Made by a program: the position numbers and the translations under genes. The notes under the pieces are model-generated. The model ran no database searches. It was given only the letters and a program-made list of their open reading frames with translations, and had not been told where the DNA came from. From the NCBI GenBank assembly GCA_017399305.1, contig JAFQDK010000038.1, positions 97-64,096 on the forward strand: 64,000 nucleotides of DNA. The letters are read 5' to 3'. This stretch comes from Clostridia bacterium. Lineage in GTDB: Bacteria > Bacillota > Clostridia > Oscillospirales > CAG-272. Below are positions 10,601 through 63,309 of this stretch, in pieces (the stretch's first letter is position 1; each line of letters opens with the position of its first letter).

Positions 10601-12882
10601 CCGCTAAAGATAATGTCCGCATCAAAATTACATCTTTCACCTCTCTGTGAACCGCTTAGTACATAGAGTGTACCTGTACCTGCAAAGTCAATCGCGCCGT
10701 CAATTGTAAGTGTAAGCTTTGCATCGGTTGCATAGTCATTGCCGAGGGATGCGGCGCAAAGTATCTTTGTAATGGTAAGAGTGTCATCTGCATCAGTTGC
10801 GCCGACGGTGATATTTATTTTTCCTCTGTACTCTGCCTTTAGGTCGCGATTACCGCCGCTTACATAATTGTACTTACCCGAACGGATAGTTACGTCAGTT
10901 GAATAACCGTGTGACGGCACGTCACCCGTAGAGGAAAAATGTGAATCCCAGCCGCCGACAACATACATGGGGGTACTGTTGCCCATGGTGATACCCTCGC
11001 CCATGACAAGCTTGTTTCCGCGTGCCTCAAATACCGTGGAAGCAGAAGGAACAATTGTGATATTCTCAACTGTAAATGCGCCGCCGAGCGAGAACTGATT
11101 TGCGGTGTTCAATGTGCCGCCACTGACTGTTATGTTGCCTTTATATTCTGGTGAAATATATCCACTTGGTACACTTGCACTGTCAACAATGTGAATATTA
11201 ACGGTCACACCGTCGCTCGCAACAGCTGCAGCGTGTATCATTGCATCGGTAAAGGTTGCAAAAGGAGTATCGGAAGTACCAACAGTAGCAATGTTATCCG
11301 TGGTGAAGCTTGTCACACCATTTGCAGAAACGTATACCTCGGTTTCGCTACGCGAAAGATAAACATATCCGCAACCGGAACATACATAGCTTGCCTTGGC
11401 ATTGACTGCTGTGGCTGAAAGAACAATGCTACCTTTGTGGTTGTCTGCATCCCTTTCACTTGCAACTTCAAAATCATGGCCGCATTTGCCGCAGGTATAT
11501 ATATCTGTACCGCCGGCAATACAGGTTGCCGCAACTTTCACGCTCTTGAAAGTCGCCTCTCCGTCATGCGCGCATGACGATGCACCGCAAACAGTGCAGA
11601 TCGTATTTTCAAATGTGTGCTCCTCGATTTCGGTTTCATATCCGCAATAGCAAGTCTTGTAGTGACCGTCACTGCTTGTTGAAACATATTCGCCGAGAGT
11701 GTGGGTGTGATAAACCGCAAGCTCGGGAACGCCGTTTCCGATTATCCAGCCTTCTTCTTTGGTGAGTCTTGATGCAAGGTCTGCTTCTTCGGTGATAAGA
11801 ATACCGTGCGTAGCAGTACCGCCGACTCCGCTTGCGTAAAAGCAATCAACAACCTCGCAACTGCGGATAACGCCGCCTATAGGTTCAACATAATTTGTTG
11901 CGGTTGTGACTATCTTGCCCGCGCTGTAGCAGTTTTCAAACGTGCCCTTATACGCGGTTGTGCCGCTATTGCCGCAGTAGGACATGATACCGCCTACATA
12001 GCCGCCGCTTACTGTAAGAGTACCGTTATTGATACAGTTTTTGAATACAAGCTTTTCTGCATCTGTTGAATAATTGCGGATAAAGCCGACAATGCCGCCT
12101 GTGCGACCGGGAGTTGTCATATCACCGTCATTCTGACAGTTTGTAAAGCTTACGGGAGAAGCATTTGAGGATGCAAGTGCTACGATACCACCGTAATAGT
12201 TGCCCGATGTAACGGTAGCGGTGATGTCGCCTGCGTTGTAAAGGTTTTCGTAGGTTATAGTGATATCCTGTGAAGAGGAAATTGCCCTTGCTACTACACC
12301 GCCAATCATAGTTTCACCGGTGATGTTGCCGTAGTTTTTCACATTGCGGACAACCTTTGTCTGGTCGCCTGTCGAGGTGTTGGAATGGACACCGCCGACA
12401 ATGCCGCCTACCTTGTTTACACCGCTTACCGTACAATAATTTGTAAGGTTTTCAAGCGTTGTATTTCCCCATGCACAGCCCACAATAGAGCCTGTGCCGG
12501 CTGTATCAACGCCAGAACCAGACGCCTCTGTTGAAGTAACAGAGCCATATGTTGCAAAATTTTTTATAGTTGCCGAATCCACATATCCGAAAAGTCCGAA
12601 CGCCGGAAGTGTGGAGTTTTCAAGCTTAATACCTTTAATGCTATAGCCTTTACCGTCAAAACTACCTGAAAAAGGAGTTTCTACAGTACCGATAGCGGTC
12701 TGCCCTGCACATGATGCAAGGTCTATATCCCCGGACAATATATAGTCTCCACTCCACGCTGACGGTGTGTTCATCAGCAAGAGAAATTCTTCTGCCGAGT
12801 CAATGCTCTCATCAAGCTCGACTGCATAAACAGAAAAAGCAAGGAGTAAAAGCATCAATAGAAATACTATTATTTTTTTCAT
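7642..12882 (-). CDS. Secreted multimodular GH31 glycoside hydrolase: GLUG-like repeat N-terminus, Cys/His linkers, GH31 barrel, PA14 insert, C-terminal dockerin
   Basis: Signal peptide from MKKIIVFLL (12882); PLDVIVIDTEW, GLDGWWYD (nucleophile), WSGD (acid/base), RWMQFGAF; PA14-like FAARYTGTI...DDGGRIFING; dockerin GDVDGNEVITVGDA...ADVNGDGKVNMID. Confidence 0.88.
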   Translation of the reverse strand: MKKIIVFLLMLLLLAFSVYAVELDESIDSAEEFLLLMNTPSAWSGDYILSGDIDLASCAGQTAIGTVETPFSGSFDGKGYSIKGIKLENSTLPAFGLFGYVDSATIKNFATYGSVTSTEASGSGVDTAGTGSIVGCAWGNTTLENLTNYCTVSGVNKVGGIVGGVHSNTSTGDQTKVVRNVKNYGNITGETMIGGVVARAISSSQDITITYENLYNAGDITATVTSGNYYGGIVALASSNASPVSFTNCQNDGDMTTPGRTGGIVGFIRNYSTDAEKLVFKNCINNGTLTVSGGYVGGIMSYCGNSGTTAYKGTFENCYSAGKIVTTATNYVEPIGGVIRSCEVVDCFYASGVGGTATHGILITEEADLASRLTKEEGWIIGNGVPELAVYHTHTLGEYVSTSSDGHYKTCYCGYETEIEEHTFENTICTVCGASSCAHDGEATFKSVKVAATCIAGGTDIYTCGKCGHDFEVASERDADNHKGSIVLSATAVNAKASYVCSGCGYVYLSRSETEVYVSANGVTSFTTDNIATVGTSDTPFATFTDAMIHAAAVASDGVTVNIHIVDSASVPSGYISPEYKGNITVSGGTLNTANQFSLGGAFTVENITIVPSASTVFEARGNKLVMGEGITMGNSTPMYVVGGWDSHFSSTGDVPSHGYSTDVTIRSGKYNYVSGGNRDLKAEYRGKINITVGATDADDTLTITKILCAASLGNDYATDAKLTLTIDGAIDFAGTGTLYVLSGSQRGERCNFDADIIFSGSISNYIGVRYHGKYTADLYVDTSIPNVANTIADLMQGEMQLHPIESYNNDKYIAENVTAKNTDKAFGEAGIHSYTYGDVRITVLSDTAVRVEEAVNGSFVDSKTLMVPHREKFGGAAVAVDNDGETAIIKTAKLVINLPLEGATAADVKIFDKEGNILFDYFTSYQHGFYSSLPAPSETPDVYVLVDNGVVPAEGGMVYVGSEAENSGWTVSDNIDYYVVATNGDSAKLRQDFVTLTGSTMMSDIKFHGSWYSRWSKFSDEQKLAMIEEYRDRDVPLDVIVIDTEWRSNTDGTGYETNTELYPDMEGFLAKAQEAGVFVLFNDHTHNTSMTILTPAELKWQCANISKLMEMGLDGWWYDRNWSYTIKSPYTNVLYSTLGQVLYYDTMAKYNADSAVEGEYGQRVLMLTNADWLRHGFIEGDPSVIGHRYGMQWSGDIYGDVLQLGREIENTVVSGVVGGSPYISADLGGFRNNDTVSENAFIRWMQFGAFASSLRVHSDINPKNPHYPWSYTEVAETAVRNYFHMRYHLMPYTYALAYENHATGMPLIRRLDFHYPEYEESKDNTQYLLGKDILVAPFNGTPGDGTSVVPSSWLKNSAGENGLDGAYYDIEGLSKNNYFDGTPAYTETVSEISNFWDQWSPNGVDADYFAARYTGTITPEVDCYIGLIVDDGGRIFINGELFAGSWSNLFADSDMNTTDVLKAGVTYDIVIEYYEAAAKAQLHFVYDPVTEADESTRSVFIPDGEWIDVFTGEVITGPKTITVTKDVYSSPIYVRSGAVVLSSAVESPLSGADWQNVSLNVYGLGEGSATLYEDDGATESYLDGEFRTTDVSVTTEGVISTINIGVTDGEFATDYTERSVTVRVHSDVPVTSALVNGKLATVTKIAKDASALPFANSGASPESDVYEITFTANMAREQVVVVSTGEEELTPNIVGDVDGNEVITVGDALLTLNAILNKKPVDADVNGDGKVNMIDVVRIIKLSIK

Positions 12883-12919
12883 TGTTATGACCATTCCTTT
12901 CTTAGAAGCACGTAACTTT

Positions 12920-15298
12920 TTAAATTGCAGATAAAATTTCAATAAGTGCGCCTTTGAGATATTCATTTTGGGCTACAGTGCAAACTTCCATTACACGTGA
13001 TGCCGCGCTATCGGTCTTATTGACGATTCGATTCAGTGCTTCAAGTGACATTGCCGGTAGACCTTTCATGCTAATCATCAAGTCGTACACGGTCTCCTTC
13101 ACCTCATTTTCAGGTAATACACCGCTTGTTTTTACTATAACGGTCATAGTTGAATCCTCGGTTACAGCAAAGCTGGATGTAGTGACAGTATGGCACTTGT
13201 CCGAATATACAAAATCAATCGGATCACCGTCTAAAGTAACCTCACTTGGCTTTTCAAAAGCAACAAAGCTAACCGCATACTCACGCTTTTTCGGTATTCC
13301 CTCGGTTGCTTTGGGCGCTTTGACAGTAAGAACAGAATTCTCGCCGTAAGCAAATGTATATTCGGTGCGACAAATAACATTGTTTTTCTTATTACCGCCG
13401 TTATCTTCAACCATTGTAAAGCTGCCGTCTGCACCGCCGAATACGCGAAGCTCGATTGCGTCAGGATTATCAGTACCATTTTTTACACCGTCGTTTGAGA
13501 GCGGTATTATCGAACCTGCCTTGGCAAACAGTGGGAATGTATCAAGAGTGCGATACGCCTTGAACTTCTTATTTCCGCTATATACTCTGCCGTTGAAAAA
13601 GTCAATATATATTCCCTCGGGAAGCCATACCTGGACACTTGCAAGTCCGCTTTCGGTATCGCGCTTTGAGGTGATGGGTGCGGCAATAAGCGATGAACCA
13701 TACCAATACTCATTCTTCACCTCTAAAACCTCACCTGCCAATGGGTGAGTGTGATACATCGGGCGTACGAGCGGTATGCCTTCCTCATGATTGCGATACA
13801 TCATGGTATAGATATAAGGTATGAGTCTATGGCGAAGTCGCATAAAATCGCCAACGATACTAAGGGCTTCATTACCCCATTTCCAAGGTTCTTTCGAAAC
13901 GAACTGATGGGGCGTTGAATGGAGACGCATTATCGGAGAAAATACACCGAGCTGTGCCCAGCGGGTATAGAGCTCGGCATCGCGGATACCCGGTTTAAAA
14001 CCTCCGATATCATGGCTCCACCAAGAAAATCCAACATTTGATGCGGTGGCTGTGAAATACGGCTGGAACTGCAAGCTCTCCCACGAAATAACAGTATCAC
14101 CGGAAAAACCTATCGGATAGCGATGCGATCCAACCTCGGCATAACGCGAAAAATTCAGCGCGCGCTTCTCGCCGCGAGCCCCATCAAGATAGTGACAATG
14201 ATTGAGCATCCAAAGTGCATCATAGCCCGCAATTTTTGAACCGCCCGGCTGCTGCCAGTCTACCCACCAAAAGTCTACACCGTCATCCTCATATGGATGA
14301 AGTACCTTGTCAAAATAGCTTTGCATAAATGCTCGGTCAGACACATCAAACTCAACGGGCTTGCCGTTTTTCTCCTTGCCAAGAGTTTCGCACATATCAT
14401 CATACTGCGCCTCGTCTGACAGAATTCCGTCACGCGGATGAAGATTGAGTGCAGTCTTTATGCCTCGGTCGTGAAGAGATGTGAGGAACTTCTTATAGTC
14501 AGGGAAAAGTTCCTTGTTCCAGGTAAAGCCTGTCCACTTTCTTACGCCGTCTGCCGCTTTTGTAATATGCCAATCCATATCAACGATGCCAACCGCAAGA
14601 GGAATATTCTCCTCAGCGAATTTATCCATAAGCTCGAGGTACTCTTTGTCAGAATATCTGTAATAACGGCTCCACCAGTTACCAAGCGCATAACGAGGGA
14701 GTAACGGTACAGGTGCGGACAGCTTATAGAAATCCTTGATGCACGCTTCGGGGAACTGTGCATTGCCAAAGAAATACAAGTCTATACGGCCGTTACCTCC
14801 AACGGGGACAGGCCAGCCGTCCTCACCTATTGCAATAGTATTGCTGTCATCAAGCAAGCTGAACGCTCTTGTTCTTCCTACAAGTCCGTCAGGCAGAGGA
14901 ATAGCACCGTTTACACCGTCGAGCGTGCGTACTGTTCCGCCATAGTTGTGCGGCAATTCCCTGCCATAAAACCAGTACTGCGCCTGATAACGTTTTGTAG
15001 CTTTGACCGAAATCTGAAGTCCTGTCTTTGAAAAAGGTTTTTCATCATATGTAAGATGCAGGTATTCGGTAACGATATGCAAATACCCGTCTTCAAAATA
15101 GCTTTCGTACTTCGGCTCAGCAAACGCACGGTTGAAGGCAATACGGGTAGCCCTATCCTCAAACACACCATCGGGACTGTATTCAAGGCGAAGAAGCTGC
15201 TCGGTAAGCACGGTAAAGCGGTATTTATCGCCCTTTACAACAAAGCGCTCATCCGCTTTAGGGTGCATTTCAAATATAGAGGTATCGCAGATTGACAT
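12920..15298 (-). CDS. Cytoplasmic GH31 alpha-glycosidase (GH31_u1-like)
   Basis: LGNWWSRY, IVDMDWH, GVDFWWVDWQQ, GFSGDT, WSHDIGG; no signal peptide; start moved to the ATG after GGAGG. Confidence 0.9.
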   Translation of the reverse strand: MSICDTSIFEMHPKADERFVVKGDKYRFTVLTEQLLRLEYSPDGVFEDRATRIAFNRAFAEPKYESYFEDGYLHIVTEYLHLTYDEKPFSKTGLQISVKATKRYQAQYWFYGRELPHNYGGTVRTLDGVNGAIPLPDGLVGRTRAFSLLDDSNTIAIGEDGWPVPVGGNGRIDLYFFGNAQFPEACIKDFYKLSAPVPLLPRYALGNWWSRYYRYSDKEYLELMDKFAEENIPLAVGIVDMDWHITKAADGVRKWTGFTWNKELFPDYKKFLTSLHDRGIKTALNLHPRDGILSDEAQYDDMCETLGKEKNGKPVEFDVSDRAFMQSYFDKVLHPYEDDGVDFWWVDWQQPGGSKIAGYDALWMLNHCHYLDGARGEKRALNFSRYAEVGSHRYPIGFSGDTVISWESLQFQPYFTATASNVGFSWWSHDIGGFKPGIRDAELYTRWAQLGVFSPIMRLHSTPHQFVSKEPWKWGNEALSIVGDFMRLRHRLIPYIYTMMYRNHEEGIPLVRPMYHTHPLAGEVLEVKNEYWYGSSLIAAPITSKRDTESGLASVQVWLPEGIYIDFFNGRVYSGNKKFKAYRTLDTFPLFAKAGSIIPLSNDGVKNGTDNPDAIELRVFGGADGSFTMVEDNGGNKKNNVICRTEYTFAYGENSVLTVKAPKATEGIPKKREYAVSFVAFEKPSEVTLDGDPIDFVYSDKCHTVTTSSFAVTEDSTMTVIVKTSGVLPENEVKETVYDLMISMKGLPAMSLEALNRIVNKTDSAASRVMEVCTVAQNEYLKGALIEILSAI

Positions 15299-15475
15299 AT
15301 CCTTTCCTCCCATAATATCATTTTCTAGTTTAATAGTAACATGAAAAAGCACTTTTGAAAATCAATAACATTTGCCTGTTATTAAAAAACATTTGGATTT
15401 TTCAAACAAAAAAAGCCGCCACTTCCTCTTGCAATTCAAAAACATTTCGGTTAAAATAGATGTGAGGTGATAGTG

Positions 15476-27298: not shown

Positions 27299-27307
27299 AC
27301 TAAATTG

Positions 27308-27336
27308 TTGACTTTAGCATATTGGTATGCTATAAT
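27308..27336 (+). promoter_or_regulatory. SigA promoter of scfA with an inverted repeat in the spacer
   Basis: TTGACT-N17-TATAAT with TG extension; TAGCATA-TTGG-TATGCTA at 27315-27332. Confidence 0.7.
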
Positions 27337-27367
27337 TTTCTTAATCATTTCTGTGGAGGTTACTACA

Positions 27368-27517
27368 ATGGAACATATCAAGACTATTGAAACCCGTAAT
27401 CTGTGCGACAGCGCAAAGAACGGCGGTTGCGGCGAGTGCCAGACTTCCTGCCAGTCTGCTTGCAAGACAAGTTGCGGTATTGCTAATCAGCAGTGCGAAA
27501 ACACTGAGAGCAAGTAA
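27368..27517 (+). CDS. scfA: SCIFF ranthipeptide precursor
   Basis: MEHIKTI...GGCGECQTSCQSACKTSC...NQQC; RBS GGAGG. Confidence 0.97.
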   Translation: MEHIKTIETRNLCDSAKNGGCGECQTSCQSACKTSCGIANQQCENTESK

Positions 27518-27528
27518 GTTTTAAAAAT

Positions 27529-27556
27529 AAAATGCCGCCGCATGGCGGCATTTTTT
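27529..27556 (+). terminator. Intergenic hairpin or partial terminator between scfA and scfB
   Basis: AAAATGCCGCC-GCAT-GGCGGCATTTTTT. Confidence 0.75.
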
Positions 27557-27567
27557 ATGGAGTAAAT

Positions 27568-28944
27568 ATGATACATCAATACAAACTCGGCGGCTATAAT
27601 ATCGTGCTTGACATATGCTCGGGTGCAGTGCATGCCGTTGACGAAGTTGCTTATGACATAATCGAAAGATTTGAAGCAAACGACCGCGGTACGGTCATAT
27701 CCGAAGTGCAAAAAATGCACCCTGAAATCACCGCAAGCGACATAGAAGAATGTTATGCACAGGTTGTATCGCTTAAAGAAAGCGGAAAGCTGTTTGCGCC
27801 CGACACCTTTGAGCCAATGGCCGGTACGCTTAAAGCAAAAACAGCAGGCGTTGTAAAAGCACTATGTCTACACATTGCACACACCTGCAATCTCAACTGC
27901 GAATACTGCTTTGCAAGTCAGGGCAACTATCACGGCGAGCGCGCTGTGATGAGCTTTGAAGTTGGCAAGGCTGCACTTGATTTTCTCGTTGAAAACTCCG
28001 GCACACGCCGCAACCTTGAGGTTGACTTTTTCGGCGGCGAACCGCTGATGAACTTTGACGTTGTAAAGCAGCTTGTTGCATACGCACGCTCAATTGAAAA
28101 AGAAAAGAACAAGAACTTCCGCTTCACTCTGACCACAAACGGCATCCTCATTGACGATGACGTTATCGACTTTGCGAACCGCGAGATGAGCAATGTTGTG
28201 CTCTCACTTGACGGACGCAAGGAGATTCACGACCGCTATCGCGTTGACTATGCCGGAAACGGAAGTAGGGAGCGCATCGTTCCCAAGTTCAAAAAGCTGG
28301 TTGACGCGCGCGGCGGCAAAAACTATTATATGCGCGGCACATTTACACACGCAAACCCGGATTTTCTTGAGGACATCAAGGTTATGCTCGACCTTGGCTT
28401 CACAGAACTCAGCATGGAGCCGGTTGTATGTGCTTCGGGCGACAAATCTGAGTTGACCGAGGAAGACAAACCCATCGTAATGGAGCAATATGAAAAGCTT
28501 GCAGAGCTTATGCTTAAGCGCGACAAAGAAGGCAAGCCTTTCACCTTCTACCACTATATGATAGACCTCACCGGCGGTCCTTGTATATACAAGCGTATCT
28601 CCGGTTGCGGAAGCGGAACAGAATACATGGCTGTTACCCCATGGGGCGACCTCTATCCCTGTCACCAGTTTGTCGGCGACGAAAAATTCAAGCTTGGCAA
28701 CGTATTTGACGGTGTTGACAACAAAGAAATTCAGGACGAGTTCATGTCCTGCAACGTATACTCGCGCCCCGAATGTCGCGATTGCTGGGCAAGACTTTAC
28801 TGCTCAGGCGGATGTGCGGCTAACGCATACCATGCCACAGGCTCGGTAAAAGGAATATACAAATACGGTTGCGACCTTTTCCGCAAGAGAATGGAATGTG
28901 CCATAATGGTTCAGGTTGCACGCATTTTTGAAGGTCAGAAGTAA
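27568..28944 (+). CDS. scfB: SCIFF radical SAM/SPASM maturase
   Basis: N-terminal RRE-like region, CNLNCEYC, FFGGEP, SPASM GCGSG...YPCHQF...CRDCWARLYCSGGC; directly after scfA. Confidence 0.96.
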   Translation: MIHQYKLGGYNIVLDICSGAVHAVDEVAYDIIERFEANDRGTVISEVQKMHPEITASDIEECYAQVVSLKESGKLFAPDTFEPMAGTLKAKTAGVVKALCLHIAHTCNLNCEYCFASQGNYHGERAVMSFEVGKAALDFLVENSGTRRNLEVDFFGGEPLMNFDVVKQLVAYARSIEKEKNKNFRFTLTTNGILIDDDVIDFANREMSNVVLSLDGRKEIHDRYRVDYAGNGSRERIVPKFKKLVDARGGKNYYMRGTFTHANPDFLEDIKVMLDLGFTELSMEPVVCASGDKSELTEEDKPIVMEQYEKLAELMLKRDKEGKPFTFYHYMIDLTGGPCIYKRISGCGSGTEYMAVTPWGDLYPCHQFVGDEKFKLGNVFDGVDNKEIQDEFMSCNVYSRPECRDCWARLYCSGGCAANAYHATGSVKGIYKYGCDLFRKRMECAIMVQVARIFEGQK

Positions 28945-53052: not shown

Positions 53053-53088
53053 AAAAAAAGTCGTACTCTTTCGAGTACGACTTTTTTT
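53053..53088. terminator. Bidirectional terminator shared by tkt and the giant-protein/peptide operon
   Basis: AAAAAAAGTCGTACTC-TTTC-GAGTACGACTTTTTTT. Confidence 0.9.
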
Positions 53089-53094
53089 GTTGCT

Positions 53095-53253
53095 TTACTT
53101 AAAGAAATTTGGCAATACGTCAGCGTTTCTCTTCTTCTCTTCCTCCTCGATAAGCCGGAGTAACTCCGGCGTATCGGGAAGGCTGTCACTAACAAGAAGA
53201 ATTGACTCTGCCTCAAAATTAATTATTCGCGCCTCAGGGCTTATGTATTTCAT
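53095..53253 (-). CDS. 52-aa peptide with a YxxP leader-like N-terminus (not in the ORF track)
   Basis: MKYISPEARIINFEAESILLVSDSLPDTPELLRLIEEEEKKRNADVLPNFFK*; SD TAAGGAG is formed by the giant gene's stop codon, 8 nt before the ATG; terminator follows. Confidence 0.8.
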   Translation of the reverse strand: MKYISPEARIINFEAESILLVSDSLPDTPELLRLIEEEEKKRNADVLPNFFK

Positions 53254-53265
53254 TTTATCGACTCC

Positions 53266-56200
53266 TTAATCTACCTTTTTGAGATATTCTGCAGCAGCAT
53301 CACTGTATGCAAGAGTAGCACGGCACACAGCCTTGAGTGCTGCGGGATTCGATATTCCCATAGCAAGAATTGTTTCGTCGTCTGCCGCAAGTACTGTTGC
53401 AGCATAGGACTCGAAGCTTGTGGTAACAGTGGGGGATACCTGAGTATCGCCAATGTAAAGTGCACCGGTGAATTCCTGTCTGAGATCCTTGGCTGAAACT
53501 GTATCAATATCTACGCAAAGACGTGTCTTGCCATCTTCGGTTACTGTATACATATTCTCACCGGAAATGTCAATAAATATCTTTGCTCCATTGATGTTTC
53601 TGTAATTTCCTTTGAAGACAAGATTGCTTGTGTCAATATCTCCAGTTGCATCAAATACAAGTGTCATAAGTATGCGCTGTTCAAGCACTGCAAACTGGTT
53701 GTAAGGTGTATAAAGCTGACCTTCTACCGCCTCACCTATAACGCTTGAATTATCAGCATCAACATCTGTAACGGTATAATCTATAATCGCATCTGCAGGA
53801 ATATGCTCTGTTACGAGATTGTCCGCATTGTAATTGAAGTATGTCTGTGCGGCTGCACCGTAATTGAACATAGCATCAAGAACTTTCTTGAGTGCTGCAT
53901 CACTGTTTGCCATTACATTATAGTAAGTTACAAGATTGTACTGCTTAGTGGGAGACTTGTAGCATACGCCGTCCTTGACATAATAATATGTGCCGGAAAT
54001 AGTATCATTCATTTCCTTGCCTGCAATACCGGGAACTTCAAAGCGCCACTTTCCGTCAACCTCTACAGGCTCAACGGTTACAGGCTCTTCTCCACTCTTT
54101 TCAAATACCATCCAGCATTCGGAAACAGCAGAATCAACCTTTACTACATACTCAAGAACATACTCACTGAGAAGCGTTACGCCAAGAGAGAATCCCTGTT
54201 TAGCTTCAATAAATTCGATTTCTTCGGTCTTTGTACCGCTACATATCGAACATGTGTAAGTAACAATGCCCTTAGCATTAGGAGTAGGATTAGTGGTTAC
54301 TACACCCTCATCCCATTCACAGTTGCCGTCCTCAGTAGCACCGCAAACTGTACATGTGTGGGTGTGGGTTTCATCACCGTTGTATGCATAGTCGCCGTAT
54401 GAGTGGTTGCCTGTTGCGGGAACCACCTCGGCGGTCTGGGTATAGTCACAGTGCATGCACTTGTATACCGCAGTGGAACCGTCCTTGCCGCAGGTAGGAG
54501 CAACCGCTTCCGCAATAAGAACAGTCACAGTGTGGTTTCTCGTCTGTACATATCCGCAGGTCTTACATGTGCGTGAATGCTGGGTGTCGCTTACAGATGC
54601 CCAGTTTGTAAAGCCGTGCGATGCAGTAGAGGTTCTGCCGCATGTACATGTAGAGATATGAGTGCTGTCGTCATTCTCATCCCATGTTGTAAATGTACAC
54701 TCGTTTGTAACATTCTCGGTAATGGTAAGATTTGTAGCTGTTGCCCCCTGGTTAACAGGATCAGTCAAGGTATATACAAATCCGTGAGTACCGTAGGAAA
54801 CAGTTGCTTTTGTTTCCTCTTCCTGAACAGTACCGTTCATATAGAATGTAATATCTGTTGTAAGAGGAGTTGTTCTGCCATCCTTCTCAAGCGAAACATT
54901 TACAGTTGTATCGAGAACATTTGTAATGTCGATAGTTCCGCCTGTGGTATGAGAATTAGCATTGAGATTGAGAACAAGAGAAGCAAGGCTGTCAGTAACA
55001 TCCGTTGTATCTTTGTTATAGCCGTTAACATTGGATGAACCTGTACGGAGCTGATAAAGCTCTGTATTGTCACTTAGATTTATGGTTGTATGACAATTTT
55101 CGGTAGTAACTCCGGTGACATTTGCATTGGTAGAACGTGACATTGCATTAAGCGTTCTGATGCTTGTTGCCACTTCACCGTTGTCGACAGTTTCAAGCTC
55201 TATTGTCTTATTCTCAACAGTAAACGGTCCTGTGTCATCCTTGATCCAGCTTCCGAGAACAACATTATAATAGAAGCTATCGGTAATATTTTCACCGTTG
55301 GTTACACCGTACAGCTTAATCTTTGAAGTTGTAGCAGTGGTGTTGCTTGCATTGGGATAATACTCACCTGCGCAAATTATTGCACGTGCATAAGTATTAG
55401 CGGAGATATTCTGCATTGTAAGGTTGTGATAATTTGCTTCAAAGATAATATCTGAGCTTCCGCTTGTCGTTCCGACAAAGGTTACACCGTTATACTTGAG
55501 ATTACCGCGCTGAGTAATTCTTACGCCGTCTTTTGCGATATTGATTGTGCCGCCTTCAATGTAGATAGTATTTACCCAATCCTCAGCAAAGCTTACACTT
55601 GCAGAAAGATTATAGTCACCGACAATTTTAATATGTCCTGCAACCTTATGCAAACGGTGAACGGCTTCTTTAAGTGTCTTTACGGGAGTATCTGTAGTGA
55701 TACCATCATTTGCATCGCTGCCGTTATCATCGTCTACATACACGGTCGGCAACGAACCTGTATGCTCAACATAATGTTCACCGCAGGTAAGACAGGGGAT
55801 GTAATATGTGCTGCCCGACTTTTCCCATACGTAGTCATACTCATGAGGTACAGAAACTTCTGCAGAAACTGCTGTAGTTTCTATCTCATCCTCTGCAATA
55901 TTGTAGCTCTGCGCATCATAAACCTCAATAATATGAACAGTATCGTGGTCAATATCGCTCACATCAAATGTGAGAGTAATAACCACAGTCTTTGTAACCT
56001 TTGCATCTGCTGCAGGATTATTGAGAAGTGCAACTGTATAAGGCAGTGTGAGACCGCTTGTAACAGTAGCAGTGAGACCTGTGCCAGACTCTACAGTAGG
56101 AAGTTTGACCTCCGCCTTGGTAAGTTTGAATCCGTCAGGAGCGTTAATCTTGAAGGTAGCACCTGCAATAGCAGTAGTTGACTTATATGTAAAGTCTACG

Positions 56201-59200
56201 CTGAGAGTGCCGTCCTTCGATGTTGCAGGAACCGCTGCCGCAACTGCGGGAGTTGTGGGAGCACTGAGAGTGCATCCGTCTGCACAGTAATATGTGCCGT
56301 CAGCCTTTACAACATATGCATGCTCATGATATACCGCTTCTGTTCTGGTTCTGCCGCATTCAACACAGGTATATGTGATTACGCCTGCCTTACTTACTGT
56401 AGGCTTTGTGGTAATAACACCTTCGTCCCAATCACATTCGGGGTCGACATTCTCGGTAACAATGTAATTTGTCTTATTGATATTGCCTGTATTACCTTGC
56501 TCAAAGATAATATCATCACCAAACGAAGCAAGGAAGCCGTGTCTACCGTAGTTGAGAGTAACATTTGCGGTTGTGTTGGTGTCATTGAACGTACCGTTCT
56601 TGAAGAAGAACAGTCTGTGAATGAGAGGCTCTGTACGTGTGCCCTCGCCCTCGTAATCGTCAATGCCATCCTCGTCGGAAACGTTGATTACAGTGTTTTC
56701 AACGTTTCTGATATAGAATCTGCCGCTGTTTTCGAAAGTAATATCATCGGATGTACCTGCAGTAGCATTTGTACTTCCGTCAACGATATTGGAGTTGTCG
56801 TTGAAGTTGATATAGAGATTGTCGAGATGTGCATTACCGTCGGTAAATGTCATTTCAACTTTATTGCCGCTTGCATCTATAACAGTATCCGTGCCTGCTT
56901 CGCCTACGTTACGGAAACCGGAGCCAAATGCATGTACGCCTGTGTTATCATTAAGATTAACAATAGAAGTACAATTATCGGTGTATACATCCTCAAGTAT
57001 CTCAGAGGTGGACATTGTATACAGGAAGTAAATCACAGCATCAAGTGTACGTGTGGTAGCATTTTTACCTGCATAACCGTCTTGAACATTAAGAGTAACC
57101 GTCTTGCTTGAGATTGTTGTTCCGTCAGGACAATCAACCGCAAATGCACTTCCGAGATAAACTCTCTCATAGAAGTAGCCGCGGAACTTGGAGGAACTTG
57201 TAATAGCAGGACCGTCGATATTAACAGTAGTAGATATTTTAGTGCTGAGAGTTGCAGAATCTGCTTCCTCACCGTAAAGTCCAGCAAGAAGATAACATGT
57301 TGCGCCATTCTGTGAACGGATATATCCCATGTCAATATCGTTCCAGTTTGCAGAGATTATTACGCGGTAGTTTTCTTCGTCACCAGCCTTGAAGAGAAGG
57401 TCGTCAAATACTGCCTTACCGCCCATAACAAGCTGAACATCCATGGTCTTTATAAGGAAGCCTGTAGTTACTGAGCCGTATGAATCGTGGTATGAATCCC
57501 CTGCAGTAAATGTGATTGTATTGTCACCCCAGTCAGGAAGAATAACATCGTCATCGAGTACAATACCGCCGCAGATTGCAACAGTACCGCCAACATCTGC
57601 AATGCGGTTAACTGCCTCGTAAAGTGTACGAACCTTCTTTTCAGGTGACATACCTGTATTTACATCAATACCTACTTCTGAGCTGTTGCCGACATATACT
57701 GTGGGCTTGCTTGCCTGATGCGCATATGTCTCACCGCACTTAGAACAGGTGAGGTAATACTGCTTAGCAGATGAATCATATGCCCACTTATAGGTTTCAT
57801 TTGAGCTATGCTCATCGTTGCAAGTATTTGTATACTGAGTAAGTACAGGTGTATTGAGTCCCATATACCATGCACTGGTCTTTACCATCGTTTCAACGCC
57901 AATAGCAATATCAGTGTTTGTGAGGTTAGGAACATCCAAAAGCTGAGCCTTGGTATCGCCGTTATCCTTAGCGGCTGTACCGTAATAGTTGCGAGTAAAT
58001 GTATGCTGTGTATTGTTTGCGCCTACCGCTACTCTACCAAAGGATGCGCGGATATAGTTTGTATCGCTGGAAGCGCTTCCGCTGACCTTGCTGGTAGACA
58101 TGGTATTGATAATGGAGATAGGTCCTTCGAAGCTTACACGTCCGGCAATACCGCCGACGTCAGTACCGCTGCCGGTTACCGAAATCGCGCCCTTGCTGTA
58201 TGCATCCTTAAGAGTGAGAGATGCTTTTTCGTTTGCGTAGCTACGGAGATAACCTGCGATACCGCCGGCATATGCATAGCCTGCAACTACCTTGTTTGTG
58301 TTATAAAGTTCGGATACAGTAACAGGAACGGAAGTGGTAGATACAAGGCCGAAGATACCGCCGGCATTCTGTCCTGCAACCTCGCCAGCATACTCATCTG
58401 TTGCTGATGCGGTTATAACACCGGTGTTAGAGCACTTGGATACTGTCTGCTTACCGGTTGCGGTAAAGTAACCACGATTGTAGTAAGAACCGATGATACC
58501 GCCGGCATATGCACCGGTAGTAACATTTCCGGTATTCTTACATGTAGAAAGTGTAAGCGTTGTATCTTCCTGATTGCTTACAACACCGATAATACCGCCT
58601 GCAAAGTCATATATACCGGAAATAGCACCGCTATTGGTATTGCCGGTAATAGTAATCTTGTTGCCTGTGAGGGTACTTGTTGCATCGTTATTATCAACCT
58701 GCAGTCTGCCGATGATACCACCGATACAAGTCTGACCGTTTATTGCACCGCTATTTGTACAGTTTGTAACCTTTAATACATTGTTGTTAGAAAGTATTGC
58801 TACGCGGCCAATGATACCGCCGGTATCTGTTTCTTCATAGTGGTCACCGTAAAGTGTTGCTGATGATGTACATTTATCAACAGTAACAGTTGTGCCTGTA
58901 ACCGGCGACGTTGCAAAAGGAAGTCTGTCGGCAGTTGTACGGATACGGCCGATGATACCGCCGACATGGCCATTGCCGGAAATTGTTCCGTCAACTTTAC
59001 AGCTTGAAATGGTTGCAGCCTTGCTGTTTGCGCTGAACAAAAGATCACCGATGATGCCGCCAGCGCGTGCGCCTGTAGATCCAACAGTTGCATTTGTTAC
59101 AGTGCAACCGCTGACGGTAACAGGAGCATATGCAATACCGATAAGAGCGGCGGATGCGTCCTTACCGCTGACATATGCATCTTTGATATTAACATTCTTC

Positions 59201-62200
59201 ACAGTTGCATTCTTGACAACTCCAAAGAGACCTGCACCTGCCTCGGTTGTCTGAACGATATTAAGGCCGGTAACAGTATAACCCTGACCGTCAAATACAC
59301 CTGTATAAGGTGTATCATTGTTACCGATAGGCTGCTGACCTAAAACACCTGTAAGGTCGATGTTTGCATCAATAACGCAATCATGGTCCCAAAGATTTTC
59401 CTGAGTCATGAAGATAAGCATTTCTTCTACGTTTGAGATAGCGTAGTCGAATTCGTTGCTACATGCACATACGCCGTCAACATATACATGCTCATGGAAT
59501 GCCTTAAGCATAGGAGCAGGTGCTTCGGATGTGCCTTCATTTACCCAGTTGGTCTTGCCACAAAGTCCTAAAAGACCGCCTGCGGTATTACCTGTGTTGC
59601 GGTAATACTTATGGTTTTCGGTGATATATGAAGGAACGCTTGTGACATACTTGGTTCCTACTGCATTGTAGATATTGTTGGTAACAAGTGTTACAGCAGT
59701 ACCGGTTGTAGTGGAATTACCTACTCTACCGATGAGACCTGCGTTGGTAGAAGCACCTGCACATACAGTAGCGCCTGCATGCATACAGTCCTCAAAGGTT
59801 ACAGGGGCATTGCCGCTTGCATCTGCCTCCTGAATTCCGAGATAACCGATAATACCGCCGAGTCTGCCTGAAGCAGAAGAACTTTGGGTGGTAATGATAC
59901 CCTTATTGAGAAGTTCGGTGAATACCGCTGTAGCATGGAAAGGAGTTTCCTGCTGACCGACATAGTTGAAATATGCACCGAGTATACCGCCGGTAAATGC
60001 GTTTGATGTAACATTACCGTAGTTTGCACACTTGCTGATGGTGAACGTATTGGTGCCGGTTGTTCCAGAATAGTTGAGGAAGCCGTAAATACCGCCCGCA
60101 ACGTTATTGGAAGTGGTAACATTACCGTAGTTCTTACAGTTTGTAATGCTCATGGTAACGCCTACAGAAGATCCGCTTGTACCGCCTGCAATACCGCCGG
60201 CAGAGTGTTTTGCCGTGATGTCGCCGTAGTTAATACAGTTGTCAATTGTGTTAGTAACACCGTCTACGAATGCAGTGTAACCCACAAAGCCGCCGACAAA
60301 CTGTGAAGATGTACATGTAACATCAACATAAGATACACAATTTGTAATAGTGAAATCTCTACCGTATCCGATAAGGGCAGCAACATTATTGCCGCCGGAG
60401 GTAGCAGTAGAGGTAACCTTACCCTTGATGGTAAGATTCTTGATTTCTGCGCTTACAGCGTGACCGAAAAGAGCAATGTTAGCAGTATCGCCCGAAATAT
60501 TGATACCGCTGATGGTAAATCCGTTACCGTCAAGACTACCGCTGAAGGTTTTGGTGGAATTACCGATAGTAGTCTGCGTATAGCCTGTGAGGTCGATATT
60601 TGCAACAAGCTTGTAATCCTTAGCCCACAGATTAGTGCTTCCTACAGCCTGATTGTTCATGAGGAAGATGATTTCTTCCGCTGTAGCGATTTCTTCATCA
60701 AAGATAGAAACTCCGCACGCACAGATACCTGTTGTTCCAAGATCATGGTCGTGAATAAAATCAAGCTCGGGCTTGCCGCTTGCATCGGTTACCCAGGATG
60801 TCGCCGCCGCAAGAAGTGCAAGACTGTCATCTGAGGAAGCGCTATTGCAATTGTATGCAAGATTTACAACATTGCCGTTTTTATCGGTAATCTTGCTGGT
60901 AGTGGTATTATTTATTATGCTTGCAAAATTGCTGATAATAGCAGTTCCGGTCTCATTGTACATGCGCACAATTGAGAACATGCCCATTACATCAGAGCTT
61001 CCGCCAAGAGTGCCAATCATTCCGTCTGTACCGGAAGCTGTGTTCTGCCAGTCGGACATAGTAACAGGAGCCTTGCCATTATCGCCGAGTAGCGGTACAC
61101 GGAAAATACCGATGATTGCGCCATCATATGCAGAATCGGTTGTGACAGTAATCTTTCCGCTATTATAAAGCTCGGTCATAGATGTTGTAATGTCGTAAGC
61201 ATTACGGCTACCGAGATATGTACTGATGATACCTGCAGCGCAGTCGCCGGCTGAAGTAATAGCCGCATAGTTTGCACACTCATTGATTGTGAACTTGCCG
61301 CCTGCAGGACAGTTATAGCCAATAGTACCGAGAATACCTGCTGCAGAGTTGGTAGTAGCGTTTACTGTGCCGTAGTTGCTGTCACGAAGGAGACTTATAG
61401 TACCGTTTACGGGGTAAGCATCAGTACCGGAAACCTTGCCGCTGTAAATGTAACCGACAATACCTGCAACTCGCTGAACACCCTCGATTGCACCGTGGTT
61501 TATGCAGTCATTTATCGAAATTGACTGACCGTCATGCTGAACCTTGGATGCACCGACAATACCGCCGACAGCACCAACTGTGGCTGTAACATCCACGTAT
61601 GAAACAACGTCTTCAATAACGAGTGAGGGGCCGATATCCCAACCAACGAGACCGCCGGTATAGTTTCCGGAACCTGTAACCGTACCGTCAATAGTCAGGT
61701 TCTTGATAGTCGCACCTGAAACGACGCCGAAAAGGCCGGTATATGATGAGGTCGAAATATTAATACCGCTGATAGTGTGGCCGGCACCGTTAAACGTACC
61801 GGTAAAAGCATTTGCTCCTGCACCTGTACCTATAGGCTTCTGAGTGTAGCCTGTAAGGTCGATGTCTGCAGTGAGTGTATACTTTCCACCCCAGAGAGAG
61901 GAGTCATTCATAAGTGCAACAAGCTCGGACGCGGTGCCGATTTTACCGTCTGCAACTGACATACCGCAGCTACATACGCCGCTTACAAATGTATGAGAAT
62001 CATGGGGCGCGATAGCAAGAGTAACAACTCCGTCAACGCCAGTTTCCCAGAGTGAATTTGCAGCAAGAGAAGAAAGCTCTGCATCGCTCGAATTTACATT
62101 ACAGCTATCTGTAATAGTAACTGTATTGCCGTTGATAGTTGCCTTCGTGCTATTTACTGTGCCCAAGGCTGAACGGATTATCTTTGCGCCGACCGCGTTA

Positions 62201-63309
62201 TAAAGACGGGTTGCAGTGATAACTGCCGCAGGCTGAGCCTCAGTAGTATCTGTCGCCGCTGCAGGAGCACCAAAACAGCCGAGGAGCGCCTCAGAAGTAT
62301 CTGTACCTGCATGCATCCAGTCGGAAATAGTAATAGGTGCTACATTATTTGTACCAAGCACGGGAATTCTGATGATACCCGCTATACCGCCAGAGCGAGT
62401 TACAACAGTAGCGTTGATATTTCCCTCGTTATAAAGGCCTGTGAGTGTTACGCTTGATACTCGGCTATGGTTTGCCTGAAGATATCCGCCGATAATACCT
62501 GCAACGTAGTCAGGACCGGTAATATCTCCGTAGTTTGCACAATTTTTGATATTGAGAACACCCTCATCGGTGGTGTTTGCATAGTCGTAGTAGCCAAGGA
62601 TACCTGCAACAACATTACCTGTTGATGTAACGTTTCCGTTATTGATACAACCTGTAACGGTAAGTGTACTTGCCTGGTTCGCGCCTGAGACACCTCCGAC
62701 ACGTCCGATAAGACCGCCGACATACTTAAAGCCGCTTACAGTGCCGTTGTTTACACAGTTTGTAACAGTAACAACATCACCTGCGGAAATAAACGCAATA
62801 TGTCCGATAAGACCACCGACGTCACTTCCGTCTGCGGTTACGTTGATGCTGGATTTGACATTTGTAAGAGTAAGGCTGTTTCTCGAACGACCAATAAGAC
62901 CGCCGACAAAAGCATCATTATTACCGGAACCCGGATAATATGTACTCTTAACAGCACCGCTTACTGTGAGGTCCTTGATAGTTGCGTTTTTAGTCGCGCC
63001 AAAAAGACCTGCATAAGCAGTCGTAGCCGAAATGTTGATACCCTTAATGGTTTTATTATTACCGTTAAAGGTACCGACAAAAGGAGTCGAGTTACTACCG
63101 ATAGGCGTTTGAGTCTGTCCGCTCATATCAATAGTAGCCGAAAGAGTATAGGTGTTACCTGCGCCCCACTGAGATGAATCCTCCATAAGTGCGACAAGGT
63201 CCGCTGCTGTGGCAATAGTGTACTCAGCCGCGCCTGCATATACTGCAAGTGCAAGTGTGAGTGCTGCTATCATCATAGCAACAAGAAGTATACGTAACTT
63301 CTTTTTCAT
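53266..63309 (-). CDS. Giant (~3,347 aa) secreted modular surface protein: four GLUG-like repeat modules, two further beta-rich modules, a cohesin-like domain, Cys/His linkers and a duplicated C-terminal domain
   Basis: Start moved to MKKKLRILL after AAGGAG; signal peptide ending AVYAGA; repeated I.TA.EL..LM...W...Y.L..DIDL.G..Q.PIG...F.G.F.G and N.G.V...GGI.G motifs. Confidence 0.9.
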   Translation of the reverse strand: MKKKLRILLVAMMIAALTLALAVYAGAAEYTIATAADLVALMEDSSQWGAGNTYTLSATIDMSGQTQTPIGSNSTPFVGTFNGNNKTIKGINISATTAYAGLFGATKNATIKDLTVSGAVKSTYYPGSGNNDAFVGGLIGRSRNSLTLTNVKSSINVTADGSDVGGLIGHIAFISAGDVVTVTNCVNNGTVSGFKYVGGLIGRVGGVSGANQASTLTVTGCINNGNVTSTGNVVAGILGYYDYANTTDEGVLNIKNCANYGDITGPDYVAGIIGGYLQANHSRVSSVTLTGLYNEGNINATVVTRSGGIAGIIRIPVLGTNNVAPITISDWMHAGTDTSEALLGCFGAPAAATDTTEAQPAAVITATRLYNAVGAKIIRSALGTVNSTKATINGNTVTITDSCNVNSSDAELSSLAANSLWETGVDGVVTLAIAPHDSHTFVSGVCSCGMSVADGKIGTASELVALMNDSSLWGGKYTLTADIDLTGYTQKPIGTGAGANAFTGTFNGAGHTISGINISTSSYTGLFGVVSGATIKNLTIDGTVTGSGNYTGGLVGWDIGPSLVIEDVVSYVDVTATVGAVGGIVGASKVQHDGQSISINDCINHGAIEGVQRVAGIVGYIYSGKVSGTDAYPVNGTISLLRDSNYGTVNATTNSAAGILGTIGYNCPAGGKFTINECANYAAITSAGDCAAGIISTYLGSRNAYDITTSMTELYNSGKITVTTDSAYDGAIIGIFRVPLLGDNGKAPVTMSDWQNTASGTDGMIGTLGGSSDVMGMFSIVRMYNETGTAIISNFASIINNTTTSKITDKNGNVVNLAYNCNSASSDDSLALLAAATSWVTDASGKPELDFIHDHDLGTTGICACGVSIFDEEIATAEEIIFLMNNQAVGSTNLWAKDYKLVANIDLTGYTQTTIGNSTKTFSGSLDGNGFTISGINISGDTANIALFGHAVSAEIKNLTIKGKVTSTATSGGNNVAALIGYGRDFTITNCVSYVDVTCTSSQFVGGFVGYTAFVDGVTNTIDNCINYGDITAKHSAGGIAGGTSGSSVGVTMSITNCKNYGNVTTSNNVAGGIYGFLNYSGTTGTNTFTISKCANYGNVTSNAFTGGILGAYFNYVGQQETPFHATAVFTELLNKGIITTQSSSASGRLGGIIGYLGIQEADASGNAPVTFEDCMHAGATVCAGASTNAGLIGRVGNSTTTGTAVTLVTNNIYNAVGTKYVTSVPSYITENHKYYRNTGNTAGGLLGLCGKTNWVNEGTSEAPAPMLKAFHEHVYVDGVCACSNEFDYAISNVEEMLIFMTQENLWDHDCVIDANIDLTGVLGQQPIGNNDTPYTGVFDGQGYTVTGLNIVQTTEAGAGLFGVVKNATVKNVNIKDAYVSGKDASAALIGIAYAPVTVSGCTVTNATVGSTGARAGGIIGDLLFSANSKAATISSCKVDGTISGNGHVGGIIGRIRTTADRLPFATSPVTGTTVTVDKCTSSATLYGDHYEETDTGGIIGRVAILSNNNVLKVTNCTNSGAINGQTCIGGIIGRLQVDNNDATSTLTGNKITITGNTNSGAISGIYDFAGGIIGVVSNQEDTTLTLSTCKNTGNVTTGAYAGGIIGSYYNRGYFTATGKQTVSKCSNTGVITASATDEYAGEVAGQNAGGIFGLVSTTSVPVTVSELYNTNKVVAGYAYAGGIAGYLRSYANEKASLTLKDAYSKGAISVTGSGTDVGGIAGRVSFEGPISIINTMSTSKVSGSASSDTNYIRASFGRVAVGANNTQHTFTRNYYGTAAKDNGDTKAQLLDVPNLTNTDIAIGVETMVKTSAWYMGLNTPVLTQYTNTCNDEHSSNETYKWAYDSSAKQYYLTCSKCGETYAHQASKPTVYVGNSSEVGIDVNTGMSPEKKVRTLYEAVNRIADVGGTVAICGGIVLDDDVILPDWGDNTITFTAGDSYHDSYGSVTTGFLIKTMDVQLVMGGKAVFDDLLFKAGDEENYRVIISANWNDIDMGYIRSQNGATCYLLAGLYGEEADSATLSTKISTTVNIDGPAITSSSKFRGYFYERVYLGSAFAVDCPDGTTISSKTVTLNVQDGYAGKNATTRTLDAVIYFLYTMSTSEILEDVYTDNCTSIVNLNDNTGVHAFGSGFRNVGEAGTDTVIDASGNKVEMTFTDGNAHLDNLYINFNDNSNIVDGSTNATAGTSDDITFENSGRFYIRNVENTVINVSDEDGIDDYEGEGTRTEPLIHRLFFFKNGTFNDTNTTANVTLNYGRHGFLASFGDDIIFEQGNTGNINKTNYIVTENVDPECDWDEGVITTKPTVSKAGVITYTCVECGRTRTEAVYHEHAYVVKADGTYYCADGCTLSAPTTPAVAAAVPATSKDGTLSVDFTYKSTTAIAGATFKINAPDGFKLTKAEVKLPTVESGTGLTATVTSGLTLPYTVALLNNPAADAKVTKTVVITLTFDVSDIDHDTVHIIEVYDAQSYNIAEDEIETTAVSAEVSVPHEYDYVWEKSGSTYYIPCLTCGEHYVEHTGSLPTVYVDDDNGSDANDGITTDTPVKTLKEAVHRLHKVAGHIKIVGDYNLSASVSFAEDWVNTIYIEGGTINIAKDGVRITQRGNLKYNGVTFVGTTSGSSDIIFEANYHNLTMQNISANTYARAIICAGEYYPNASNTTATTSKIKLYGVTNGENITDSFYYNVVLGSWIKDDTGPFTVENKTIELETVDNGEVATSIRTLNAMSRSTNANVTGVTTENCHTTINLSDNTELYQLRTGSSNVNGYNKDTTDVTDSLASLVLNLNANSHTTGGTIDITNVLDTTVNVSLEKDGRTTPLTTDITFYMNGTVQEEETKATVSYGTHGFVYTLTDPVNQGATATNLTITENVTNECTFTTWDENDDSTHISTCTCGRTSTASHGFTNWASVSDTQHSRTCKTCGYVQTRNHTVTVLIAEAVAPTCGKDGSTAVYKCMHCDYTQTAEVVPATGNHSYGDYAYNGDETHTHTCTVCGATEDGNCEWDEGVVTTNPTPNAKGIVTYTCSICSGTKTEEIEFIEAKQGFSLGVTLLSEYVLEYVVKVDSAVSECWMVFEKSGEEPVTVEPVEVDGKWRFEVPGIAGKEMNDTISGTYYYVKDGVCYKSPTKQYNLVTYYNVMANSDAALKKVLDAMFNYGAAAQTYFNYNADNLVTEHIPADAIIDYTVTDVDADNSSVIGEAVEGQLYTPYNQFAVLEQRILMTLVFDATGDIDTSNLVFKGNYRNINGAKIFIDISGENMYTVTEDGKTRLCVDIDTVSAKDLRQEFTGALYIGDTQVSPTVTTSFESYAATVLAADDETILAMGISNPAALKAVCRATLAYSDAAAEYLKKVD

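Follow-up and report, generated by a model that had tools for sequence, protein, structure and literature searches.

The question raised by this locus is what a frame of only 52 codons does directly behind the gene for a giant secreted protein. The window analysed comprises 64,000 nt of contig JAFQDK010000038.1 (positions 97 to 64,096, forward strand) in assembly GCA_017399305.1 of a Clostridia bacterium, and contains a gene for a giant secreted protein whose stop codon overlaps the Shine-Dalgarno site of a very short second gene, named P0001. A first-pass annotation, made from the sequence alone, had taken the pair for a candidate undescribed system. The reading favoured here, which can be called probable, is that P0001 encodes a precursor of the kind found in linear polyphosphorylated peptides (LPPs), that it is co-transcribed and probably translationally coupled with the giant gene, and that it would be served in trans by a pathway made up of a recognition element for peptides made by the ribosome and modified after translation (RiPP recognition element, RRE), a kinase and a peptidase. 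The features concerned are the following.

53266..63309, minus strand: gene for the giant secreted protein, 3347 aa, recognized as an open reading frame (ORF) with an ATG start and TAA at 53268-53266

53269..54198, minus strand: C-terminal 310 aa of the giant, two modules of beta-sandwich plus helical hairpin according to sequence alignment and a structure model

53262..53268, minus strand: TAAGGAG, made up of the giant stop codon and, overlapping it, the peptide-gene Shine-Dalgarno site, with 8 nt left to the ATG at 53253

53095..53253, minus strand: P0001, stop codon included, a putative LppA-type precursor peptide gene of 52 aa, assigned by family homology

53188..53253, minus strand: P0001 leader, residues 1-22, MKYISPEARIINFEAESILLVS, delimited by its conservation

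53098..53187, minus strand: P0001 acidic core and tail, residues 23-52, variable, with a D-x-LPD motif, an LPNFF-type C-terminus and no Cys

53053..53088, minus strand: intrinsic-terminator-like hairpin of 16-18 bp plus a T run, readable on both strands, 3′ of P0001

63310..63420, minus strand: AT-rich region upstream of the giant gene, containing its Shine-Dalgarno site

The translation and coordinates of the 52-aa ORF first reported, including the giant stop codon within its Shine-Dalgarno site, were reproduced letter for letter, and the strong terminator described behind it corresponds to the hairpin listed above. No terminator-like site was found between the giant ORF and P0001. Together with the overlap of stop codon and Shine-Dalgarno site, this supports the proposal that the two genes are co-transcribed and probably coupled in translation, the hairpin being predicted to close the two-gene unit. 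The AT-rich region upstream of the giant gene contained two weak promoter-like matches, no more than were found in shuffled sequences.

Homologs of P0001 were sought by six-frame searches in its own assembly (G000; 2.13 Mb, 57 contigs, 64% complete), in a set of 41 genomes of relatives and in a sample of the class. Six-frame and hidden Markov model (HMM) searches of the own genome, where the first-pass annotation had proposed to look for paralogs, recovered seven family members including P0001, and more were present in relatives. In the own genome, a six-frame search preceding the HMM gave five matches. Four of the seven were clear copies (E values of 2e-31 to 3e-25 with an HMM of these four). 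The weaker copies, on contigs C22, C2 and C24 (E values of 1.8e-5, 0.033 and 0.12, respectively, with the first four-sequence HMM), were accepted because of their genomic context and their closer homologs in relatives. An alignment of the seven members (A2) gave matches in 14 of the 18 other genomes of the genus, with up to 13 per genome, in none of the six genomes from other genera of the family, and in one of the 16 from other families of the order (G039). A 26-position profile of the leader, built from 33 sequences (A3), was matched at E ≤ 1e-3 by 12 genomes in a class-wide sample of 398 others. Tyr3 and Pro6 were invariant in 33/33 leaders, in agreement with the YxxP leader-type precursor initially proposed, and Ala8 and Ser22 were kept in at least 90% of them; outside the leader the peptides, cores included, were highly variable. 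Among 53 non-identical members, the start codon ATG was found at the aligned position in 49, and a Shine-Dalgarno 4-mer lay 3-12 nt upstream in 42; several of the members outside these 42 have an AAAGGAG slightly more distant, or a start that was mis-set by the script. Contigs of sequencing runs covered the P0001 ORF in one run only, and none of the runs listed for the locus is of RNA. The one natural variant seen within the ORF (53191 A>G, in one contig of run X5 at low depth) is synonymous (Val21) by manual reading of the frame.

P0001 is a real, conserved gene. That it might instead be a frame left open by chance behind the giant gene, in 3′ untranslated sequence, is suggested by its shortness, by its having been overlooked by ordinary gene calling, and by the comparison with Pfam and NCBIfam, which gave nothing above noise. 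The ESM Atlas returned unnamed clusters only, all scoring <0.9, and the leader profile had no match among PDB chains. A word-indexed homolog search found a single protein, 98% identical; so sparse a result is to be expected of an ORF below gene-calling cut-offs. The chance-frame explanation deserves next to no credence, being already contradicted by protein-level conservation across genera and by the ATG and Shine-Dalgarno site that the frame has of its own. An extension of the giant by read-through or frameshift was rejected as well, since the family members have their own ATG and Shine-Dalgarno site, at a gap of -1 to 134 nt.

The family is coupled to large secreted proteins well beyond the window. 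In the own genome, five of the seven members lie behind a large secreted-protein gene: the 3347-aa giant of this locus, proteins of 2231 aa on C37 (15-nt gap), 2717 aa on C2 and 1388 aa on C24, and, for the C22 peptide, a giant truncated by the contig end some 130 nt upstream. Of 28 loci from the genus, 20 had the peptide behind a long frame, with a gap of -1 to 134 nt; 19 of these frames continue past the end of the locus or contig (with 79-499 aa visible), and the one complete frame has 485 aa. Three peptides had no upstream long frame, all three lying within enzyme cassettes, and in the other five loci the contig end was too near to decide. In other families of the class, 15 of 19 loci also had a long frame upstream of the peptide; the upstream proteins that were fetched in full (595-1880 aa) have N-termini that by eye are signal-peptide-like and are otherwise heterogeneous. 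The 3347-aa giant itself has a signal-peptide-like N-terminus (MKKKLRILLVAMMIAALTLALAVYAGA), beta-helix-like modules in repeats and motifs of paired Cys, and it reached the threshold of no family in Pfam or NCBIfam.

The same link was seen from the giant side. A reverse search with the C-terminal 310 aa of the giant against a species-level genome collection yielded 79 loci, in gut and rumen metagenome-assembled genomes labelled Eubacteriales, Clostridia, Oscillospiraceae, Ruminococcus, Faecousia and Lachnospiraceae. The largest frame ended inside the locus in 69 of them. A match to the leader profile was present within 300 nt downstream in 22 of these 69, and seven more had a divergent [Y/W/F]xxP micro-ORF with an ATG and a Shine-Dalgarno site, while 40 showed neither. 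Coupling of giant and peptide is frequent (29/69), not obligatory. The genomic coupling of the family to large secreted proteins is real and strong, and the association with giant secreted proteins anticipated in the first-pass annotation does recur. The further suggestion made there, of a peptide serving as signal, export or assembly partner, or modified ligand for the giant, is so far a conjecture.

The C-terminal 310 aa of the giant is conserved among giants with a trailing peptide, at 25-69% identity to the first sequence of the alignment, and was modelled with a pLDDT of 90.1 and a pTM of 0.85. Fold searches with this model returned only generic FN3, cytokine-receptor and CBM56-like sandwiches (Z ≤ 8.7 over ~85 residues), and these model-based matches appear too generic for a function to be read from them. 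The type of peptide core follows the type of giant: D-x-LPD occurs in 11 of 12 peptides behind giants of the ...AVCRAALAYSDAA... C-terminal type, while ...KTWG... peptides lie behind giants of the ...INKWLG... type. Since the pairs are co-inherited, this match indicates stable linkage and not interaction. Giants ending in ...YSDSAK.YF... are trailed by peptides that have in common a C-terminal GEWD motif (loci L134, L136, L137, L142-L144, L146 and L149), and in some leaders of such loci the Tyr is replaced by Trp or Phe (WxxP, FxxP).

A small gene directly behind that for a giant secreted protein, and a peptide type that varies with the giant C-terminal type, are also what would be expected of a polymorphic toxin followed by its immunity protein or antitoxin. 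This is highly improbable for P0001: the giant ends, according to the model and to the identities just given, in a conserved tandem beta-sandwich with no variable toxin tip; the peptides are conserved at the N-terminus and variable at the C-terminus, the opposite of immunity proteins; and they co-occur with RiPP enzymes. Alternatively, the peptide could assist the giant in unmodified form, as a plug, small chaperone or partner in assembly, with the leader-like N-terminus acting as a binding strand instead of a tag for the RRE, which would suit both its tight coupling to the 3′ end of large secreted-protein genes and the way in which core motifs track the giant C-terminal type. However, the peptide co-occurs with a kinase and a peptidase, some loci unite the big protein, the peptide and the enzymes, the YxxP motif shows no variation, like that of leaders bound by RREs, and the peptide lacks a signal peptide whereas the giant is of the Sec type. 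A partner of this kind is therefore improbable.

The kinship proposed for P0001 is with the LPPs described by Popov et al. (Nat Commun, May 2026; PMC13381572). As set out in that paper, the LPP set consists of the precursor LppA, the HprK-like kinase LppK, the RRE LppB, the leader peptidase LppS (archaeal-type, SpI-like), the NTP-transferase LppN and the MsbA-like exporter LppD, and each cluster, in organisms that are Bacilli, contains one to three precursor ORFs. The precursors are 35-200 aa long, with a YxxPxVLxHQxIxFETxxS leader and variable C-termini. LppB is a discrete RRE (PDB 9x8z) on which the leader peptidase LppS depends; cleavage occurs after T-1, and the HprK-like kinase polyphosphorylates Ser3 of the core. 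The biological role of LPPs is given as unknown in the Discussion (PMC13381572). The family of P0001 resembles the published precursors in its small size, in an N-terminal YxxP...F-E...Ser leader and in a variable C-terminus, and the same enzyme families are present in the own genome or in cassettes of relatives.

None of these enzymes adjoins P0001. The absence of a neighbouring RRE, peptidase or cyclase gene, remarked on at the outset, stands: the two-gene unit is flanked by the gene for ribosomal protein L17 upstream and by convergent transketolase subunit genes downstream, and the sole PqqD match of the assembly lies on another contig, C43, where the following pair of genes was found.

C43:26277-26567: PqqD-type RRE gene (PF05402, above the cut-off with 65.4 bits)

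C43:26560-27024: SpI-like peptidase gene overlapping the RRE gene (TIGR02228, E 4.5e-7; PF00717, E 0.0017; both below cut-off)

The top NCBIfam matches of the C43 RRE are lasso-type PqqD chaperones, below cut-off; in the PDB, LppB ranks first (9x8z_B, E 0.02), with the lasso proteins TbiB1 and TfuB1 next. The C43 peptidase is 40% identical to the peptidase of the cassette in genome G335, and the spacing of its Ser32 (in GTSMEP) and His70, as read from the sequence, resembles that of S29 and H68 in LppS. The kinase is encoded elsewhere. On C37, a single strand carries the 2231-aa giant, two near-identical Cys-bearing peptides, a protein with S-layer homology (SLH) domains, a radical SAM/SPASM protein, a 240-aa HprK-like protein and, last, a Cys-free peptide 61% identical to P0001; C22 carries a peptide, an SLH protein, an HprK-like gene (252 aa) and two radical SAM genes. 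Both HprK-like copies have a Walker A motif, which reads GVGKTT in that of C37. The HprK-like proteins match the catalytic part of true HprK in other genomes at ~35% identity, and a comparison with the PDB gave no match at E ≤ 0.01. The hairpin behind P0001 reappears in this cassette: the same stem-loop (GTCGTACTCGAAAGAGTACGAC) follows the C37 paralog (C37 3560-3620), as though the peptide gene had been duplicated fairly recently together with its 3′ end.

Peptide, kinase and peptidase tend to be present or absent together, in genomes that are related and not independent samples, so that no P-value is given. Within the genus, the kinase was found in 15 of 18 genomes and the peptidase in 15 of 18; 14 genomes had the peptide, the kinase and the peptidase, three (96-98% complete) lacked all three, and one (84% complete) had the kinase and the peptidase with no peptide at E ≤ 0.01. 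In G039, the sole peptide-positive genome outside the genus in the set of relatives, the kinase adjoins the peptidase. Across the class, all 12 peptide-positive genomes had a kinase match, which was full-length in 11; the partial match, in G365 (query 80-237, in a 230-aa frame), is encoded on the contig of the peptide, ~1.1 kb away from it. As a background, roughly 68 of 398 class genomes have this short kinase type (230-290 aa), according to a hand count from a table that also contains true HprK matches and leaves 19 matches unlisted.

Around the kinases of other Clostridia, genes were found for PqqD (PF05402), a Peptidase_S24/TIGR02228 archaeal-type SpI and NTP_transf_5 (PF14907), often with a small secreted protein having a copper-amine-oxidase-N domain, and in one genus with an ABC exporter (beside the G097 kinase). 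A family peptide lay beside the cassette in 5 of 29 kinase loci (E values of 2.7e-5, 5.2e-4, 1.4e-3, 0.083 and 0.28). ORF coordinates, as opposed to a printed gene map, give one arrangement for L104, L119, L096 and L114: the big protein comes first, then the peptide, (the small secreted protein), the kinase, the RRE, the peptidase and, last, the nucleotidyltransferase. The co-occurrence with PqqD, S24/S26-like peptidase, PF14907 nucleotidyltransferase and radical SAM genes that the first-pass annotation had proposed to look for is thus present. Its suggestion that the peptide is processed in trans is plausible, and the natural reading, because the enzyme genes lie on other contigs (C37, C22 and C43); the chemistry itself stays conditional for P0001.

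The pathway envisaged would run as follows. The YxxP leader of P0001 would be bound by the discrete PqqD-type RRE of C43, and the HprK-like kinase (C37, C22) would phosphorylate the conserved Ser, most likely Ser22, a candidate phospho-acceptor because it is the conserved Ser of the family, and by analogy with LppA. The archaeal-type SpI-like protease encoded beside the RRE on C43 would then cut off the leader, freeing the acidic core with its D-x-LPD and LPNFF motifs. Export of the core and a role at the cell surface, if any, would be further steps. Phosphorylation, leader cleavage and the role of the product are accordingly to be understood as predictions drawn from homology.

Several observations weigh against this assignment. 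There is no enzyme near P0001, which was assigned through paralogy and through co-occurrence in related, non-independent genomes. The F-E pair lies at Y+10/11 here and at Y+13/14 in the published leader, and the conserved Ser at Y+19 instead of Y+18 (PMC13381572); with the spacing thus different, counting residues does not allow the LPP sites of cleavage and phosphorylation to be carried over. The absence of a PDB match to the leader profile counts on the same side. The match that makes LppB the best solved relative of the C43 RRE is weak. The PF14907 nucleotidyltransferase was not found in the own genome, of which 64% is represented, nor was an exporter identified there, no search aimed at exporters having been made. 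With reservations as to the leader spacing, PF14907, the exporter and its position outside any cluster, P0001 was filed as a likely LppA-type precursor.

Further differences from the published LPPs concern arrangement. The precursor genes are scattered here, and mostly appended to genes for large secreted proteins; P0001 lies outside any enzyme cluster, its putative enzymes being encoded on C37, C22 and C43, with one paralog inside the C37 cassette; the kinase of this genus is accompanied by an SLH protein and by radical SAM/SPASM maturases, the pair of RRE and peptidase being encoded apart; and the organisms are Clostridia, whereas the published work deals with Bacilli. The terms radical SAM, SLH, S-layer, surface and Clostridi do not occur in the main text of PMC13381572, and its co-occurrence table for the main LPP cluster includes SLH in nine and Cu_amine_oxidN1 in three neighbourhoods, without discussion. 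The term 'undescribed system' can therefore be kept only in part: the enzyme set and the leader type match those of LPPs, whereas three features, namely the coupling to giant genes, the joining of one or two radical SAM/SPASM proteins to the kinase, beside Cys-rich acidic paralogs, and the imitation of peptide tails by SLH proteins, go beyond that main text and seem to be new.

The radical SAM genes give rise to another explanation, by which P0001 would mainly be a substrate of the C37 radical SAM/SPASM enzyme and yield a cross-linked RiPP, phosphorylation being secondary or absent. Three radical SAM genes lie on C37 and C22, beside paralogs of P0001. In the genus, radical SAM genes were found in 11 of 18 genomes, and each of these 11 has at least one copy with a family peptide no more than ~2 kb away. 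The C37 cassette, moreover, ends in the Cys-free relative of P0001. The cassette radical SAM proteins match Radical_SAM/Fer4_12 and NCBIfam SPASM-maturase models, and a CxxxCxxC motif can be read from their sequence; the C37 protein resembles RiPP maturases, with TIGR04463 as the best NCBIfam match (6e-37), followed by Clo7bot, geopeptide, CefB and PapB, all far below cut-off. The matched models include those of thioether RiPPs (TIGR04463, Clo7bot, CefB and the ranthipeptide maturase PapB), which the paralogs recall in having Cys and cores rich in Asp and Glu. However, P0001 has no Cys, as against two in the paralogs on C37 and C22, the peptides that adjoin radical SAM genes in relatives carry Cys in acidic cores, and no radical SAM gene adjoins P0001. 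Further, close radical SAM homologs are missing from five genomes of other families that do have the peptide, three of these giving only partial matches (E values of 1e-11 to 1e-12), and hhalign detected no similarity between the N-terminal 115 aa of the radical SAM protein and PqqD proteins (probability 0.6%). The names and descriptions of the matched models mention no coupling to an HprK-like kinase or to SLH proteins. That P0001 itself is mainly a radical SAM substrate is rather unlikely; the probable substrates of the radical SAM/SPASM enzymes of the genus are the Cys-bearing paralogs, not the Cys-free P0001.

Lasso peptides have to be considered too. In phosphorylated lasso peptides of the paeninodin type, the [Y/W]xxP leader is recognized by a B1 protein, discrete and of the PqqD type, and the tailoring enzymes are an HprK-like kinase and a nucleotidyltransferase (PMC13381572, PMC7533575). 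The YxxP leader, the discrete PqqD-type RRE and the HprK-like kinase found here are like theirs. In contrast, the B2 transglutaminase-like protease (PF13471) was not found in the own genome at its 64% completeness, and the only strong Asn-synthase match (PF00733) is a 635-aa frame on C24, ~21 kb from the nearest family peptide and on another contig than the RRE pair. Since the B2 protease was not found and the Asn-synthase match is so distant, no lasso fold is expected, as far as gene content can tell.

The LPP-type reading of P0001 leaves the question of why such peptides should follow giant genes, on which the SLH proteins of the cassettes may bear. SLH-domain proteins with a long Thr/Pro-rich linker are encoded on C37 (locus L006; 5977-6759, minus strand) and on C22 (locus L007; 554-1363, plus strand). 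In all six cassettes with both an SLH protein and a peptide, from across the genus, the SLH protein ends in 6-10 residues that repeat the tail of the peptide, as in the pairs NNSMGDVEL and NNSMGDEEL, or QWETPDL and EWETPDL. Each of the six SLH tails scored best with its own peptide, and among 720 permutations the observed sum was reached by the true pairing only. P0001, whose own tail reads ...DVLPNFFK, has a tail of the C37 type, which ends in ...EDKLPDFYE in the C37 peptide and in ...EDALPGFGFGN in the C37 SLH protein. The likeness is one of protein sequence: the pairs show synonymous codon differences, and there is no relationship in the DNA that lies downstream. Gene conversion was rejected as its source on these two grounds, which also make it likely that the likeness stems from selection and not from recent conversion. 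In other Clostridia cassettes (L096, L099, L105, L107, L109 and L119), small secreted copper-amine-oxidase-N proteins occupy the SLH position; by eye, no tail mimicry was seen at the C-termini of these proteins in the distant cassettes.

These observations allow a tentative proposal, which at present has the odds against it. The LPP-type peptides of gut Clostridia would be dedicated partners of large surface proteins: the phosphorylated, leaderless core, once exported, would dock by its C-terminal tail, and the SLH (or copper-amine-oxidase-N-like) anchors would display the same tail, so that peptide and anchor would vie for a single site on the giant or on the wall polymer, or bridge it, and thereby control attachment or release of the giant. 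If true, this would be the first biological role for the LPP class. More generally, the genomic setting of P0001 hints at a function linked to surface proteins, and the link between LPP-type precursor and giant is reproducible, whether looked at within the genus, in the wider class or backwards from the giant, which makes the role of LPPs approachable by experiment through surface-protein anchoring. The enzyme set of the genus has, in addition, gained radical SAM maturases and wall-anchor proteins that imitate peptide tails. Being scattered micro-ORFs below gene-calling cut-offs, many LPP-like substrates escape cluster-based mining.

Two other regions of the window deserve mention. At 27305-28944 (plus strand), a SCIFF-type Cys-rich peptide (ending in ...GGCGECQTSCQSACKTSCGIANQQCENTESK, in ORF 27305-27517) is encoded directly 5′ of a radical SAM gene (27532-28944; Pfam Radical_SAM and Fer4_12). 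This is the sole radical SAM gene of the window, ~24 kb from P0001, and the two genes look like an ordinary SCIFF/ScfB pair, unconnected with P0001. Finally, two genes for glycoside hydrolases of family GH31 lie at 7642-15352 (minus strand). The larger product (1774 aa) combines PA14 with a dockerin of type I, on account of which the organism probably builds cellulosome-like complexes.

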